64,000 bases of DNA from a virus (IMGVR_UViG_3300032770_000003:64001-128000), one strand, 5' to 3'; positions 878 to 44,856 are shown, counted from the first letter of the stretch. Numbers and translations are program-made. The notes: a model not told the origin generated them from the letters alone.

Positions 878-1141
878 TCACCCCTCAAACAGCAATGCAG
901 CGTAGGTGGTGGTATCAACGGATGTCTGCACTACGAAGCTGTAGTACAGCGCATAGACGTCGAGCGACTCTCCCACTGGGATTGGGAAATAATGCTGACC
1001 ACCGTCAAAGGAGACTTGTAATTGATTGTCTCCAGAGTTGAACAGGATCAGACGCTGACCAAGTCCTCGGAGTACCGCAACGGTCGAAGGCATCGTCGTG
1101 GCAGTGCCATTGACGTGCCGTGGGCGCATCACTGGTAGCAT
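878..1141 (-). CDS. Small virion protein, paralog of 38206..38484
   Basis: ATG at 1141 with AGGAG RBS; shares MR..HVNGT, N.GD, SFDGG and TTY.AL.FEG with the 92-aa protein at 38206..38484. Confidence 0.7.
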   Translation of the reverse strand: MLPVMRPRHVNGTATTMPSTVAVLRGLGQRLILFNSGDNQLQVSFDGGQHYFPIPVGESLDVYALYYSFVVQTSVDTTTYAALLFEG

Positions 1142-1235
1142 GTCGGATTCTCCTGTTAGGGTATTAACACCCAGCAGCATACCACCAGCCTGATGGCTCA
1201 GCGGGTATGGTGGCACGTCCCTGTGGAGCCTAACA

Positions 1236-1256
1236 TTCCTCTCGAACTGAGAGGAA
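1236..1256. promoter_or_regulatory. Palindrome TTCCTCTC-N5-GAGAGGAA (operator or hairpin)
   Basis: 8-bp inverted repeat in the intergenic region; near-identical inverted copy at 44949..44975. Confidence 0.45.
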
Positions 1257-1279
1257 CACAAAAAGTCAACGCACTACGG

Positions 1280-3745
1280 CTAGATGCCCACGCTGATCAC
1301 GAAGCAGGCTTCCGCCTTGTAGGTCTTGAGCCGCTCCAGCGAGTGCCTGAGCAGCCACTTGTGGGAGAAGTTGGCGAAGTCGTAGACCAAGAGCCGGTCC
1401 TTGCCTTTGTTCGCGCGTAGCCCGCGGCCGACACGCTGGAGGAGCCGGATCTTGGCCTTGCCTCCCGCACACAGGATCAGGACATCAATGTTCGGGACAT
1501 CGACCCCTTCATCGAGGATGGGGGTGGCGACGAGGATCGAGATCTTGTTCTTGGCGAACTGATCCAACACTTCGAGGCGCGTGCGCCCCCTGTCCGTTCC
1601 CGTCAGGTACGCCCAGGGCTTGTCGCTGTACTTCTTGAGCAGCGCCGCCAGCGCTGCTCCTTGCTTCGTCTTGTCCACCAGCATCAAAACCTGGTCACCC
1701 TTGCGGGCATGCTGGATCGCTTTGGTCGCTGCCTTGGTGTTCAGATGTGGGTTCTCGACGATCCCTAGCTTCTCCACCTCTCGAAAGGAGAGCCCGGACG
1801 GGATGATCGGGGCATGTACCTTCAACATCTCGACGTACGGGGGGACGGAGATGCCACGGTCCACCAGGAGCTTGTTGGAGACCTCGTAGAGCACGGGACC
1901 CGTCTGAGCCAGGAGCCGGAGGTCGGCGCCGTCTGACCTGTCCAGCGGCGTCCCTGACATGCCGAAGCGGTAGTAGGCAGGGATTTGGGACAAGACGTCG
2001 TAGTGCGTGTCGCTGGCCGCGTGGTGCGCCTCGTCAGACCACACGAGCTGCCAGCGCGGCAGCATGGCCTCCACCTCCGGGAGCTTGAGCCGGTTCGCGA
2101 GCGACGCTGGCGTAGCCACCGTGATCCAAGCACCCAGCCGGTACTCACTGTCCGCGATAAAACCGATGTCTTGCTCACGTATCCCAAGCCGTAAAGCGAA
2201 GCGGGCGACGGTTTGGTAGACCAGGGTCATGCGGTCGACCAAAAAGAGCGTGGGCAGCGCCAGGTGCTTGGTCACTGCGATCGCCACCTCGGTGTTGTGG
2301 GTTACTGTGAAATCACCCAACAAGAAGCGACCATCACCCTCCAGAGTGAAGCCAGCATAGGGCCCGAACCCCACGGGCTCCACACGAAAGCCAACATGCT
2401 GCCACTGCCTCTTCGGTCGCGCGTGCTTCCGTTTTAGGCGCAGAGGCAGCACTTTGGTGTCACCGATGAGAACCAGTTTCCAGTACGTGCGTGGCTTGCT
2501 CCACCATGCAAGACAAACTTTTTTGGCTCTGATCGAGGCACCGAATCCCAGTGATCGAGCTAGAAACGCTAGATCATCTACCCATGCCCGTTGTTTGAGG
2601 ACGAGTTCGATGTTGCACCCGTCGGAGTAACCATCACCATCGATGAAACCGGCGAGGAATGCTTCTCGTTCTTGTCGGGTACCTCGCAAGTACCGATCTG
2701 GCAGCCGCTCACCACTACCGTAGATGGTACGGAGCTTGTTCAATAAGCTGTGAGGATCCCCTGCGGTATTCTCTGTGATGAACGTACTACTGCAACGGTC
2801 CTCTGGACGTCTCACATGTGAGGATTGCCCAGCAGATAAAGCTACTTGTGCGATTGCATCCTGAATTTCTTTGTCAGGCTTTGTGATCTCTATTACTCCG
2901 AGATCTTTGCGCCCATCAGCGTACCAAATACCAAGAAGCCACGGGTCAACCGGAACAGGGTCTTCTGGCGCTTTGAACTCCACTCCCGCACGGACCAACC
3001 GACTCAACCGTCGACGATCCTTGGTCCAGCTCAAAAACTCGTCCAGAGACACGTCTACGACTGCTTCTGCCTTTGGGTCAAAGATGGTCAGGACATGTAC
3101 CGAGTTGCATTCGAAAGGCTCGCCAGCCCGCTTTGGTGTGACGCGATACATTTGTGCCGCACCGTCACAAGTGCTGGTCACGCGTCTCGGCTCGCTGTCC
3201 GGGCCCATCAAAAGGTCACCAACGCGGACCTGCGCGGCGCGAATGACGCGACCGTCGTAGAGGAGCACAGGCGTGTTCGGGTGCAGACACTTTCCACCGT
3301 TTGTCGCTATGCGTAATATGCCCTTGCGGCCCGCGACCAACGCTTTCGCTGCTTCCAGCTGGTAATCGAAAACGCCTTGGCCGAACTTGATGCCCTGCAG
3401 CTCGAAGCCTTTGTTCCCGATGGCTGGACGATGCGTTTCGTTGTCGTCGATGAGCTGGATGTTGCCTTTCGGGTCGTAGAGTCTTAGCTCCTCCAGGACG
3501 AGAGGAGCGAGCCCGGCTGGCATCGAGCTGTGCACCTGATCGAAGAGGTGCTTCTTGCCATCCCAGACCTTGCGCTTGTAGGCCGGGGAAAACATGAACC
3601 CGTCGACGTAGTACGACGTCGCCTTCCGCACAATCTGGAGGGGGAAGTCGCCACTGATGAATGCGCGGTGACCGCGAACCACGATCACACAGTTGGTCTG
3701 TCCGATCGGAACGTGACGCGGTTGTAGCTTGAGCGCGCTACTCAC
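1280..3745 (-). CDS. SF2 (DExH-type) DNA helicase containing an intein
   Basis: Walker A ATNGGK|T split by the intein, DEAHH, GMSGT, ILDEGVDVP and QRVGRGLR motifs. Confidence 0.93.
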   Translation of the reverse strand: MSSALKLQPRHVPIGQTNCVIVVRGHRAFISGDFPLQIVRKATSYYVDGFMFSPAYKRKVWDGKKHLFDQVHSSMPAGLAPLVLEELRLYDPKGNIQLIDDNETHRPAIGNKGFELQGIKFGQGVFDYQLEAAKALVAGRKGILRIATNGGKCLHPNTPVLLYDGRVIRAAQVRVGDLLMGPDSEPRRVTSTCDGAAQMYRVTPKRAGEPFECNSVHVLTIFDPKAEAVVDVSLDEFLSWTKDRRRLSRLVRAGVEFKAPEDPVPVDPWLLGIWYADGRKDLGVIEITKPDKEIQDAIAQVALSAGQSSHVRRPEDRCSSTFITENTAGDPHSLLNKLRTIYGSGERLPDRYLRGTRQEREAFLAGFIDGDGYSDGCNIELVLKQRAWVDDLAFLARSLGFGASIRAKKVCLAWWSKPRTYWKLVLIGDTKVLPLRLKRKHARPKRQWQHVGFRVEPVGFGPYAGFTLEGDGRFLLGDFTVTHNTEVAIAVTKHLALPTLFLVDRMTLVYQTVARFALRLGIREQDIGFIADSEYRLGAWITVATPASLANRLKLPEVEAMLPRWQLVWSDEAHHAASDTHYDVLSQIPAYYRFGMSGTPLDRSDGADLRLLAQTGPVLYEVSNKLLVDRGISVPPYVEMLKVHAPIIPSGLSFREVEKLGIVENPHLNTKAATKAIQHARKGDQVLMLVDKTKQGAALAALLKKYSDKPWAYLTGTDRGRTRLEVLDQFAKNKISILVATPILDEGVDVPNIDVLILCAGGKAKIRLLQRVGRGLRANKGKDRLLVYDFANFSHKWLLRHSLERLKTYKAEACFVISVGI
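2294..3289 (-). mobile_element. Intein with LAGLIDADG endonuclease (332 aa) in helicase Walker A
   Basis: Starts CLHPNT, ends VTHN followed by Thr; LAGLIDADG-type motifs LLGIWYADG and FLAGFIDGDG. Confidence 0.93.
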
Positions 3746-41498: not shown

Positions 41499-42638
41499 TT
41501 ATCGACCGCCACCCATGGAGGCGACGACCAGTGAACGCACCTGAGGAGACATCTCCCCCGTTGCGTCGAACTTGATGACGTCGAGTTGGTTCATCTGGCC
41601 CTTCTTGACCAGCTCGAACATCACATCAGTGATTTGCGCCTTGTTGATCTGGTCCGATCCGGTATCCAGACCACCAGGTCCGAACGACTTCTGGACGGGC
41701 TGAACACCCGCCGGAGCTGCGCCCTGACCACCGCCCGGCACCGAGCGAAGATGCGACTTGGGGCCACCCACCGGTGCGCCGGCAGCCGCCGCGTTCACCT
41801 CAGCACCGCCGACAAGCTGCTGGCCGATTCCGACCATTGCCTCAGCGAAGCCCTTGTTGAACGTGGTCTGCTCGCTCATGAAACCGCCCATGCCCTTCTC
41901 CAGGGCATCGATGCGGGTGGCGAGCTTGCCAACGGTGTCGTTCAGCGCCTTGTTGATGCGCGCAGCGGTGCGCGCCTCGACGCCTTCCAGAGCCTCGCCC
42001 ATGGCGCGGGCGAACTCGTAGAGCACCGGGGACATCTCGATGCCCTTCTTCAGGTTCTGGCTGTTGGCGATCGCGCCACCCAGCGACTTCTTGGTTGAGC
42101 CCGGGTTCGCATCGGGTTCGATCTCATCGTCGGTGTCGGCGCCTGCGCTCGTCTTGGGCGCCTTGCCGGCTCCCTCTTCGGTTCCAGAAGGGGGCGCCTT
42201 CTCGGGAGACGTCGACGCCTTGGCGGTACCCGACTTCTTGGTATCGTCGTCATCGTCGTCGTCATCGTCGTCGCCGTTCTTGCCGAACGGGAACCCCTTC
42301 TTCACAGCCCAAGACTCCGCCTGGGTCAGCTTCTGACCCTTGGCGATCTTGGTGCCGATGGCCTTGCGAGCGTCGGAGCGTGCTCCTCTCACAATGGCAA
42401 CCTCGGCTGGAGTCAGCGCCTTCGACTTCGCCACCTTGTTCGCCAGCGCCTTCTTGACGCCGTCGTAGTCAGTGCCGTTGTCGTCGATGCCGTCCGAGTG
42501 CTCGTCTTGGTCTGTCTGGCCTGTGCCAGCCCACGTGCCCGGATTCGAGTCGGACGGCGTGTGAAAGAGCTGGCTCTTCGCCAATCCTTCCAGCCTCGAC
42601 AGGGCAGCGTGGAACTCGTCGCGATTGATGGTGGACAT
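41499..42638 (-). CDS. Capsid scaffold/assembly protein
   Basis: Between protease and MCP; acidic, low-complexity, many KS/KA/KG sites; AGGAGG RBS. Confidence 0.7.
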   Translation of the reverse strand: MSTINRDEFHAALSRLEGLAKSQLFHTPSDSNPGTWAGTGQTDQDEHSDGIDDNGTDYDGVKKALANKVAKSKALTPAEVAIVRGARSDARKAIGTKIAKGQKLTQAESWAVKKGFPFGKNGDDDDDDDDDDTKKSGTAKASTSPEKAPPSGTEEGAGKAPKTSAGADTDDEIEPDANPGSTKKSLGGAIANSQNLKKGIEMSPVLYEFARAMGEALEGVEARTAARINKALNDTVGKLATRIDALEKGMGGFMSEQTTFNKGFAEAMVGIGQQLVGGAEVNAAAAGAPVGGPKSHLRSVPGGGQGAAPAGVQPVQKSFGPGGLDTGSDQINKAQITDVMFELVKKGQMNQLDVIKFDATGEMSPQVRSLVVASMGGGR

Positions 42639-42646
42639 GTCTCCTC

Positions 42647-44338
42647 CTAGTGAGTTCCAGCGATTGCTGTGAAGATGGCGTCAGCCAGGGCCTGCGCCAC
42701 GGGATAGCTGTAGCCCCGCCGGGCCTGCAGATAGCCGAGAGCCTCTTGATACGAGATCTTCTCTGCCTTCTTGATGTGGTGACCGGGGAACGTCTGAATC
42801 TTGGCGCTGCCTTCGAGCGACTGAGGTCGGAGCACGCCACCCATGCCACCGGCGGTGAGTGCCTTCTCCTCTTCCTCGGTCTTCGTGGGCGCTGCCATGG
42901 ACTTCAGCGCGGGGCCACAGGTACAGCACCCACCCTTGCAGACGTCGTCCCAGGGATGCAGGCACCACTTCTGCTTGCCCAGTGACTTGACGATCTCGGC
43001 CCAGGTGTTGGTGTTTACAGGAGAGTTGTGTGCTACAATCCCATTCGCCTCATACCACCCCAACGACGTATCGAGATTGTAAACATGGCCAGACCAATCG
43101 AACCGTCGCGAGCTAGCGAGATCGCTGAAGCCTATCGCTTGGGAGAGCGTCCGGCCGCTATCGCCGAACGTTACGGAATCACTCGTGAGGGAGTCTGGCT
43201 CATCGCCAAAAGACTCGGCGTACGGCGAGATCGCTCTGAAGGGCAAAAGCTCCGCTGGCAAAACGCCATTCCCGCTGAGCGCAAGAAGTGGGAAACCGAA
43301 GGGGCCAAGCATCTGCGAAAGCAGCCCATTCCCGAAGAAGCTCGGCACAAGATCGCGCAGTTTCGGGAGGAACACCTTACGCTTGTCGGCCGCGGCGAGC
43401 GCGTCCTTGCCGAACTTCTCAAAGAACGCGGAATCCAATCGGTACTGCAGAAGGCCGTCGGTCGATACAATATCGACGTTGCCGCCGCATCCGTCGCCGT
43501 GGAAATCTTTTTCACCAACCGTACAAACCCTGTGAAGGGAACGCGTCCGGGAGGAAATGCGCGCAAGTTCAAATACCTGCTCGAAAGTGGGTGGCACATT
43601 CTGTGCATCATGGGTTCCAATCGTCGACGCAATCGACGACCCGGCAGTTTTCGTCCAGCCGACCAGATCACGGTTGAAACGGCCGATGCGGTAGCGGCCT
43701 TTATCAAGCTGACCAAGCGGTACCCAACCATGATCCGTGAATATCGGGTGATTCGGTGTTCCGGTGAGCTTCTCACCAGTAGCCAGTACGATCTCAACCA
43801 TCTGGCCGGTGTACCAACGTCGGCTGACCTTTTTTGACGCACCACAGACGCGAACGTCGCCAGGGAAACAGGCAGTAATCGCCACATCCTGCAGCCAGCA
43901 CTTGGCGATGGTATTCCCCTCTCGCCGAAGCACCTTGCCCTGGATCGAGAAACCAACCTTCCGATTGGACTCGTTGGCTGCGAGCGCGGTGATGTGGTCC
44001 CACCAGTACTCAGCGCGCTCCTTGCCCTTATACAAAAACCCCTTCAACCAGAGCCCAGCCGGGGTGATCCGGCATTCCGCGGGTTCGCCGACCTTGTGCT
44101 CAGGGCCCTCTTTGTGGTCGTCGTTGATGTAGCCGTACTTGAGGAAGTAGCCGTAGTCGATCCCGTTCTGACGGACCACTTCACCCTGAAGGTCACGGTC
44201 ATCTGTGGACGCGACCCCTTGGATCCAGCGCTTGCCGTCCTTACTCTCAGCCTTGGAGATCTTCTCCACCGGCATGAAGAAGTGGAAGGTAGAACCGGTG
44301 CCCAGCAAACGGTCTTCTATACCGTCCACTAAGCGCAT
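42647..44338 (-). CDS. Prohead protease containing an intein
   Basis: I.G.AST...D.QGE, G..NDDH, GFSIQG and VAITA|SPVN motifs; ATG 44338 with GGAGG RBS. Confidence 0.9.
   Translation of the reverse strand: MRLVDGIEDRLLGTGSTFHFFMPVEKISKAESKDGKRWIQGVASTDDRDLQGEVVRQNGIDYGYFLKYGYINDDHKEGPEHKVGEPAECRITPAGLWLKGFLYKGKERAEYWWDHITALAANESNRKVGFSIQGKVLRREGNTIAKCWLQDVAITACFPGDVRVCGASKKVSRRWYTGQMVEIVLATGEKLTGTPNHPIFTDHGWVPLGQLDKGRYRIGRFNRDLVGWTKTAGSSIASTIGTHDAQNVPPTFEQVFELARISSRTRSLHRVCTVGEKDFHGDGCGGNVDIVSTDGLLQYRLDSAFFEKFGKDALAAADKRKVFLPKLRDLVPSFFGNGLLSQMLGPFGFPLLALSGNGVLPAELLPFRAISPYAESFGDEPDSLTSDSVTFGDSGRTLSQAIGFSDLASSRRFDWSGHVYNLDTSLGWYEANGIVAHNSPVNTNTWAEIVKSLGKQKWCLHPWDDVCKGGCCTCGPALKSMAAPTKTEEEEKALTAGGMGGVLRPQSLEGSAKIQTFPGHHIKKAEKISYQEALGYLQARRGYSYPVAQALADAIFTAIAGTH
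43029..43039 (+). promoter_or_regulatory. Candidate extended -10 promoter for the antisense nuclease
   Basis: TGTG-c-TACAAT about 45 nt upstream of ATG 43085. Confidence 0.5.
43085..43837 (+). CDS. HTH + DUF559/Vsr-like PD-(D/E)xK endonuclease, antisense within the intein
   Basis: 250 aa; N-terminal HTH (EAYRLGERPAAIAERYGITREGVWLI), then E..L...L..RGI...Q..VG.Y.ID......VEI...L...GW.IL pattern. Confidence 0.8.
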   Translation: MARPIEPSRASEIAEAYRLGERPAAIAERYGITREGVWLIAKRLGVRRDRSEGQKLRWQNAIPAERKKWETEGAKHLRKQPIPEEARHKIAQFREEHLTLVGRGERVLAELLKERGIQSVLQKAVGRYNIDVAAASVAVEIFFTNRTNPVKGTRPGGNARKFKYLLESGWHILCIMGSNRRRNRRPGSFRPADQITVETADAVAAFIKLTKRYPTMIREYRVIRCSGELLTSSQYDLNHLAGVPTSADLF

Positions 44339-44856
44339 GTCACGTGCCTCCATCTCTTCCCCTGAGTGATCAGAGCAATGGCGGAACGTGTGACATTCAG
44401 CCTAGTGGCGATCCAACTCTGGGATCGCCCCAACCTTCGCCAGTTCAATACTTGCTGAATATCCGCTTCAGAAAGCTTAGCGCTACCACGCGGATGAGCG
44501 GCGCCCTTTGGGGCATTGGTACGTCCCCACGCTACGCAATCAGCGCGATTCTGGCGGTGAGTACCCTCGCTCAGATGATCTGGATTCACACAGTGGCGGA
44601 CATCGCAAGCGTGTAACGTTTCCATCCCCGGTAAGAGCTGGCGGCCTAGCTTCTGTTCCAAAACCAGCCTGGCAGCGATACGCGGACGACCGTTGAACCA
44701 AAACCACGCACAACCTTTGTTGTTCCTTGCACCTGTCCAGAGATGGCAAGGCCCCAGCCCTGGACGAGCCTCAGGCCCATTCAGGTCAATGAACTTCCGG
44801 AACCGGAAGGTCTCGCCTTCACCAAGCAGCTGATCGTTGATCTCTGTGAGTCGCAT
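44329..44856 (-). mobile_element. Free-standing HNH homing endonuclease with C-terminal HTH
   Basis: C.LWTGA, H.CD...CVNPDHL..GT...N..D and KL.E.D....GRSQ..IA....V motifs. Confidence 0.88.

Follow-up and report, generated by a model that had tools for sequence, protein, structure and literature searches.

The subject of this analysis is an intein-interrupted prohead (head maturation) protease gene in a 64,000-nucleotide stretch of viral DNA (IMGVR_UViG_3300032770_000003, positions 64001-128000), hereafter the window, with coordinates counted from its first letter. The insertion is probably a composite mobile element, in which a class-1 intein of the protease and an antisense gene for a helix-turn-helix (HTH) nuclease resembling Vsr and I-Bth0305I occupy the same codons. 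Both reading frames are conserved and are selected in complementary regions, folds are predicted for both proteins, and the closest relatives lack the element. Its principal parts are as follows.

42647 to 44353, minus strand: 568-codon precursor gene for the prohead (head maturation) protease, which the intein interrupts
43025 to 43870, minus strand: class-1 intein, 282 codons, with Cys1, block B TPNHP, block F GHVYNL, a terminal His-Asn and Ser at the +1 position
43085 to 43837, plus strand: antisense open reading frame (ORF), 250 codons, encoding an HTH, a helical linker and a Vsr/EDxHD-like nuclease (putative homing endonuclease); its homologues are likewise antisense in inteins
43085 to 43222, plus strand: N-terminal HTH domain, amino acids 1-46 of the antisense ORF
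43379 to 43783, plus strand: nuclease domain, amino acids 99-233, with E105, Q122, Y128, N129, D131, E140 and K161 present and Asn at position 148

The interrupted gene was identified in a PHROGs search, where the head maturation protease family phrog_1028 matches precursor residues 22-161 (E 2.7e-44). In translation, the N-terminal junction of the intein reads ...DVAITA|CFPGD..., at precursor residue 162, and the C-terminal junction ...IVAHN|SPVN..., at residues 443/444. Cys1 is accompanied by T38-P-N-H41, and C1, T38, N40, H41 and P42 are invariant across 26 relatives; the window intein ends in ...IVAHN|S, where the relatives read HN|C. A Pfam search of the minus-strand protein returned a weak Intein_splicing match (PF14890, 15.7 bits vs a cut-off of 35.8) and found no LAGLIDADG or HNH domain. 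Intein-less homologues of the protease (245-293 amino acids, at most 88% identity) read ...QDVAITASPVNTNTW..., which is exactly the predicted spliced product; the junction expected after splicing, ...QDVAITA|SPVNTNTW..., is identical to that of the intein-less alleles, as an in-frame insertion at this site would predict.

The antisense ORF lies wholly within the intein, in a frame that is open for 283 codons from stop to stop. Codon position 1 of the ORF pairs with codon position 3 of the intein, amino acid n of the plus-strand protein lies opposite intein residue 263-n, and the plus-strand 'YNIDVAAASVAVEI' is the reverse complement of the minus-strand 'DFHGDGCGGNVDIV'. An earlier note on this DNA had described a 250-amino-acid plus-strand ORF inside the intein in codon-aligned register, the reverse-complement motif, and a complete set of splicing blocks with no in-frame LAGLIDADG or HNH motif. 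All of these sequence statements are correct on re-translation, and the Pfam search agrees with the last. The arrangement is thus that of a contiguous intein with an ORF inside it on the opposite strand and no folded endonuclease domain in frame.

If only the window is considered, chance could account for the open antisense frame. The codons TTA, CTA and TCA are reverse complements of stops and were counted as those that generate antisense stops; they make up 1.4% of the codons of this phage of ~60% GC, and the probability of no antisense stop in 250 codons is ~0.03. Codon-aligned antisense open runs of 256-495 codons are found in 12 of the 34 long ORFs of the window, among which the protease gene is 6th, with 5/34 longer. 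On this ranking, openness of the frame was rejected as meaningful by itself in the window, and its significance comes instead from the relatives.

A protein search with the antisense ORF found three homologues (28-49% identity), one of which has weak PF18741 and HTH matches in Pfam. All three are antisense inside inteins, one in a protease homologue and two in MuF-like head morphogenesis proteins (...N|CRC motif). A profile of the four sequences matched 5210 cluster representatives at E<=1e-3, and 991 at E<=1e-30. In IMG/VR a relative of the ORF is encoded at 171 loci, and both frames are open in all loci retrieved (80 unique ones, or 88 in a further count; GC 39-72%), openness being taken as at least 220 codons on the plus strand (at least 165 where a contig end cuts the ORF) and at least 445 codons in the aligned minus frame (fewer only where a contig end cuts the ORF). 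The search was repeated from the intein frame to avoid selecting on the plus frame; more than 560 viral loci matched, and 71 unique inteins were kept. The aligned antisense frame is open for 234-320 codons in 71 of the 71 (GC 40-72%), and the hidden Markov model of the antisense ORF family matches every one at E<=1e-52, which bears out the consistent openness that had been proposed as a check. The other four frames at these loci are open for 20-266 codons, mostly well below 150. TTA, CTA and TCA account for 1.28% of extein vs 0.50% of intein codons, with 276 expected in the inteins and 99 observed (~1.4 per intein), a count in which the long open antisense run of each intein holds zero by definition. 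Among members with GC <=0.53, mostly 4-17 antisense stops are expected per intein, and the 1-4 observed lie at the ends.

Selection in the two frames was read from codon-position diversity in alignments guided by the plus frame (68 non-redundant loci) and by the intein frame (63 independent loci), which give a concordant picture. In intein residues 1-60 and 253-282, position 3 of the intein frame is the most variable (0.56-0.68 vs 0.22-0.53 at position 1), and identity in the intein frame is 0.39-0.74. Most bins over intein residues 61-252 show the opposite pattern, and in the remaining ones the two frames are nearly level: position 3 of the plus frame is now the most variable, and identity is 0.24-0.47 in the plus frame vs 0.14-0.33 in the intein frame. 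The signature of plus-frame selection spans amino acids 11-202 of the antisense ORF, and the asymmetry is kept in 10 of 10 pairs within the protease subfamily (five members, the window included). A selection test on the antisense strand had been called for with the original observation; by codon-position diversity, it comes out in favour of the plus frame over intein residues 61-252. The stretches concerned are these.

43691 to 43870, minus strand: intein residues 1-60 (blocks A and B), selected in the intein frame (position 3 diversity 0.56-0.68 vs 0.22-0.53), per-residue model confidence (pLDDT) 86-96, overlapping the C-terminal tail of the antisense ORF
43025 to 43114, minus strand: intein residues 253-282 (blocks F and G), selected in the intein frame (position 3 0.60-0.63 vs 0.32-0.42), pLDDT 90-97, overlapping the start codon and Shine-Dalgarno-like (SD-like) site of the antisense ORF
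43144 to 43449, minus strand: read-through stretch, intein residues 141-242, open but not conserved as protein (identity 0.14-0.19 in the minus frame vs 0.24-0.41 in the plus frame), pLDDT 28-45
43493 to 43504, both strands: GTCGCCGTGGAA, 12 nucleotides constrained in both frames, reading V137-A138-V139-E140 on the plus strand and F-H-G-D on the minus strand

Intein residues 121-132, which include the 12-nucleotide stretch, are under equal constraint in both frames. Among 63 non-redundant relatives the four plus-strand codons of the stretch are GTC or ATC in 62/63, GCC in 61/63, GTG in 62/63 and GAA in 63/63; each frame therefore fixes the synonymous sites of the other, V-A-V-E on one strand and F-H-G-D on the opposite one. 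The F-H-G-D motif is nearly invariant, and the confidence of the AlphaFold2 (AF2) model is ~50 there. We know of no role for a motif of the F-H-G-D type in HINT domains. A novel in-frame endonuclease domain around 'DFHGDG' was considered and rejected as the main reading, given that the flanking minus-frame sequence is neither conserved nor structured; the motif itself is still selected in the minus frame.

The model of the plus-strand protein was built from four aligned sequences, and that of the minus-strand protein by AF2 from 26. The former has a pLDDT of 73.5 overall and ~90 in its core, where the predicted alpha-beta-beta-beta-alpha-beta topology is that of a Vsr-type fold. Its top Foldseek matches in the PDB are I-Bth0305I (3r3p, probability 1.0) and Vsr. 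The window protein has no Pfam match at E<=1, DUF559 and REase_MTES_1575 included, and its only PHROGs match is a marginal one to the small terminase (E 0.009), which is attributed to the HTH. Among 53 relatives, by comparison, 34 match PF18741 and 6 match PF04480 (DUF559) at E<=0.01, and many match HTH_7, HTH_23 or HTH_58. The HTH and Vsr-like nuclease that had been proposed from the sequence are thus recovered both in the modelled fold and in the family.

Where the family profile matches the sequence of the DUF559 protein 3hrl (E 2e-4), D131 and E140 line up with the V-D-F ... V-E motif; among PDB sequences the profile did not reach 3r3p (HMMER, E<=10), and it reached Vsr only at E 0.03-0.2. 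E105, Q122, Y128, N129, D131, E140 and K/R161 are invariant in the family and all are kept in the window. The invariant E105, D131 and E140 are candidates for the counterparts of the catalytic Asp (D51 in Vsr, D196 in I-Bth0305I) and its acidic partners, D131 and E140 being the two that align with 3hrl. Position 148, in the sequence alignment the likely equivalent of the catalytic His (Vsr H69, I-Bth0305I H213), is Asn in the window; where the family has His, this residue would correspond to the general base proposed for Vsr and I-Bth0305I. The earlier note had cautioned that FFTN replaces the usual DG..H after the V-E. The window does depart from DG..H, but this is no defect of the window copy, as the whole family is without the 'DG' of DUF559.

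In the AF2 model of the minus-strand protein, a HINT fold is formed by residues 1-65, 91-136 and 243-282, with a pLDDT of 86-97 over the terminal parts (1-65 and 243-282) that is intermediate over 91-136 and falls to 28-45 over 141-242. Its Foldseek matches in the PDB (probability up to 1.0) are almost all inteins (RecA, RadA, DnaB, VMA) and HINT relatives such as the Hedgehog autoprocessing domain and a bacterial intein-like domain. By codon position, the nuclease core and last strands (amino acids ~127-232) therefore lie opposite folded HINT parts (intein residues ~31-136), and the HTH and linker opposite the unstructured read-through. As modelled, ~110 codons encode folded parts of both proteins.

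Signals for the start of the antisense ORF are embedded in the codons of intein block F, and a further candidate signal lies at its end.

43073 to 43087, plus strand: weak SD-like GAGA and the ATG of the antisense ORF, inside the codons for H-V-Y-N-L of intein block F
43803 to 43837, plus strand: terminator-like ten-pair hairpin with TTTTTT, overlapping the stop codon of the antisense ORF (43835 to 43837), of low weight

Opposite the block F His, 40 relatives have ATG and 13 have GTG (53/63 in all). This His uses CAT in 75% of cases (40:13), compared with 30% at control His codons (Fisher p 4e-9), and the block F Leu and Asn use CTC and AAC in 73% each vs 38% of controls (p 2e-7 and 9e-7). The enrichment of CTC and AAC yields GAGGTT 8 nucleotides upstream of the plus-strand start, and an SD-like 4-mer is present in 42/53 relatives. 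The hairpin carries little information: terminator-like sites number 3 in 2 kb vs 1.8 +/- 1.4 in shuffled sequences, which is within expectation, and its T-run, which derives from minus-strand 'KK' codons, is not conserved in relatives.

The virus record that contains the window has 171,494 bases and is estimated to be 96% complete. It holds a second element of the same kind.

About 135.5 to 136.9 kb of the genome, outside the window (locus 994-2406, minus strand; antisense ORF 1375-2055, plus strand): second antisense-nuclease intein, in a family-4 uracil-DNA glycosylase (UDG), with the junctions ...ILNPVM|CFPGA ... LVSN|CRPP

The antisense ORF of the UDG element encodes 226 amino acids and is 35% identical to that of the window. 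Across the intein family, the host genes encode prohead protease, UDG, the large terminase subunit, MuF-like minor capsid proteins and proteins with PF04860, PF06152 or PF01183, which we take to be portal, minor capsid protein and GH25 lysozyme domains, respectively. A blastn search of the protease gene against GenBank phages gave no match; tblastn of the window protein matched 75 GenBank phage records, including Salmonella (31), Pseudomonas (15), Gordonia (8) and Escherichia (6) phages, and the family also occurs in Vibrio and Haemophilus phages. In two GenBank records that were inspected, the match runs antisense to a gene annotated as the intein carrier, and no nuclease ORF is annotated; among the matches listed, the host gene alone lies under the match. 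Mycobacterium phage Sejanus gp8 and the intein-bearing gene of Escherichia phage fEg-Eco06 are annotated only as 'capsid maturation protease' and 'minor head protein with inserted intein'; the unannotated antisense ORFs have 279 amino acids in Sejanus and, in fEg-Eco06, 342 from the listed TTG start or ~255 from a family-type start.

At least 255 protease homologues are intein-less, with up to 88% identity to the N-extein of the window, and every one inspected has the junction expected after splicing. Another 28 proteases bear the intein; they are 30-40% identical to the window in their exteins and 37-52% (mostly 44-52%) in their inteins. With the closest relatives lacking the intein, and with extein identity low and intein identity higher, the comparison points to horizontal acquisition of the element by the window lineage. 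Inteins of this type occupy two sites six codons apart in protease homologues, ITN|CPVN in one homologue, which is the site used in the window, and PVNTD|C (after PVNT[DE]) in two; this suggests a shift to a neighboring site.

Explanations other than a composite mobile element have to be weighed. The plus frame might be a shadow of GC-rich codon usage, open but never expressed, with the intein holding an uncharacterised middle domain in its own frame. The long antisense runs in 12 of the 34 long window ORFs are what such a shadow would look like, and both the lack of a Pfam match for the window protein and the nearly invariant F-H-G-D of the minus strand would fit. It is nevertheless very improbable, in view of the antisense frame being open in 71/71 relatives, including those of GC 40-50% where 8-16 stops are expected, of position 3 of the plus frame and not of the minus frame evolving fastest over intein residues 61-252, and of the plus frame folding as an HTH and Vsr-like nuclease with relatives in PF18741 and DUF559 while the middle of the minus-strand protein has a pLDDT of 28-45. 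The gene could also be real without being the homing enzyme of the intein, that is, a domesticated DNA-binding protein or nuclease that serves the phage as a regulator, in competitor exclusion or in DNA processing. In its favour, certain phage nucleases encoded close to packaging genes serve host functions, most copies of the element are in head-morphogenesis genes, and the protease subfamily lacks the general-base His. Even so, domestication seems improbable: the nuclease ORF and the intein always occur together and in the same register, across protease, UDG, large terminase subunit, MuF-like and other Pfam-distinct hosts, and the element is absent from the closest protease relatives of the window, so a mobile unit fits better than a function tied to a single host gene. 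The closest solved relative, I-Bth0305I, is moreover a proven homing endonuclease (PMC3239194).

Several observations do weigh against a composite mobile element in the window. At position 148, where 56% of the family carry His, the window copy has Asn and the protease subfamily as a whole D or N; this copy also carries a 10-residue loop insertion with a pLDDT below 50; the ATG at 43085 is preceded at 43073 to 43076 by GAGA rather than GAGG, a weak SD-like site, and a scan upstream on the plus strand found no sigma-70-like promoter. The +1 residue is Ser, where other protease inteins have Cys, which may bear on how efficiently the protease is spliced. To these are added the open frame that, in the window alone, is within chance, and the use of codon-position diversity, which at such divergence is a crude proxy for dN/dS. 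A related explanation accepts the family and holds that the window nuclease is already inactive, its ORF open from too little elapsed time. In the homing cycle model, which bioRxiv 10.1101/2025.01.02.630785 also discusses, endonucleases decay after fixation, and Asn148, the weak SD-like site, the unique low-confidence loop and the chance level of openness would all suit a decaying copy. This is of more concern than the preceding alternatives but remains rather unlikely, as all other family-invariant residues (E105, Q122, Y128, N129, D131, E140 and K161) are kept, the four other members of the protease subfamily are also without His148 while plus-frame selection is seen in 10/10 pairs, and targets for homing persist in the intein-less close relatives.

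The composite mobile element is therefore the preferred reading, and the earlier proposal that the nuclease is a separate antisense gene gains support from homology, fold, frame-specific selection and conserved start signals. In such an element, the intein at ...VAITA|SPVN... would have to splice out to give a working protease, while the nuclease of ~250 amino acids would be translated from its own ATG and SD-like site within intein block F. The nuclease may then cut intein-less protease alleles of co-infecting phages, and recombinational repair would copy the intein and the nuclease gene together. Intein residues ~141-242 would be an unstructured read-through of the strand opposite the nuclease gene, of which nothing more may be required than the absence of stops. 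On balance there is a slight leaning towards the family being one old and very successful composite element of single origin, in which the HINT domain and the HTH-Vsr nuclease have evolved together while sharing codons, and not the outcome of a rare accident that placed a free-standing endonuclease in an intein. The basis for this is the ~110 codons with two modelled folds, the nearly invariant 12-mer that carries both the invariant Glu of the nuclease core and the F-H-G-D of the intein, the start and ribosome-binding site in block F, and the presence of the element in many gene families and in phages of both Proteobacteria and Actinobacteria. If single origin is true, few natural cases of long antisense dual coding with selection in both frames would be larger than this family.

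Two neighbors of the protease gene may be mentioned. Directly upstream is a free-standing HNH endonuclease gene (44329-44856, minus strand; phrog_1872/6254, E 1e-21) that overlaps the protease start at 44353. The N-terminus of its product (MRLTEINDQLLGEGETFRF) is similar to that of the protease (MRLVDGIEDRLLGTGSTFHF), and this likeness suggests that the HNH gene is a second homing-type insertion in the protease gene. Downstream, the gene at 41499-42638 (minus strand) matches a head scaffolding protein (phrog_15087) and includes a nine-Asp run.

Dual coding of this kind has consequences for annotation, as gene callers retain a single gene where two overlap. GenBank entries for phages list the host gene and omit the antisense nuclease. 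Metagenome catalogues often show the opposite, with the nuclease called and the host gene that bears the intein cut short or passed over, so host proteins with such inteins are probably under-represented in protein databases. The family also offers a natural, replicated case of two folded domains on opposite strands in which selection is measurable per frame, and it is useful for examining the limits of overlapping coding. That a contiguous intein can stably carry a free-standing endonuclease is relevant to the 'splicing first' model and to how split inteins arose (Dassa 2009). For the phage itself, the two copies single out the protease and UDG genes as places of recent invasion.

Among known systems, the I-Bth0305I/EDxHD family (Taylor et al. 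2011, PMC3239194), which is the top structural match, is alike in having an N-terminal DNA-binding module and a C-terminal Vsr-like nuclease, and in its association with phage introns and inteins. The genes of I-Bth0305I and of the 'fractured genes' arrangement (Dassa et al. 2009, PMC2677866) are, however, on the same strand, in group I introns or between split-intein halves, whereas the window element is a contiguous intein with an antisense, dual-coded gene; its sequence kinship to I-Bth0305I is only remote, and the motif His is not conserved. With DUF559 and REase_MTES_1575 (PF04480, PF18741) it shares the fold and a core D...E motif (Y-N-x-D ... A-V-E vs V-D-F ... V-E in 3hrl), although the 'DG..H' that follows the Glu in DUF559 is without a counterpart in the window family. 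Inteins with an antisense ORF for a LAGLIDADG endonuclease (Gorbalenya 1998; Gogarten et al. 2002, both cited from bioRxiv 10.1101/2025.01.02.630785) are similar in placing a homing endonuclease opposite a contiguous intein, but the nuclease belongs to another family.

The closest precedent is the preprint of Gosselin, Arsenault and Gogarten (bioRxiv 10.1101/2025.01.02.630785), which, in the parts consulted, reports antisense VSR-like endonucleases in full inteins of actinobacteriophages, with DNA polymerase, minor capsid, large terminase subunit and thymidylate synthase as host genes. The earlier note had known of no description of this architecture, and on that point it is superseded. The consulted parts of the preprint contain no frame-specific selection test and no embedded start signals. 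Relative to the system as reported there, the window comes from an uncultured 171-kb phage in which the host genes are a prohead protease and, for the second copy, UDG; the antisense ORF overlaps splicing blocks A, B and F; and the family comprises thousands of clusters, including Salmonella, Pseudomonas, Escherichia, Vibrio and Haemophilus phages. The architecture has thus already been described, and what is new, as measured against those parts of the preprint, is the prohead protease host, the wider spread, the frame-resolved selection, the overlap with the splicing blocks and the start signals in block F.

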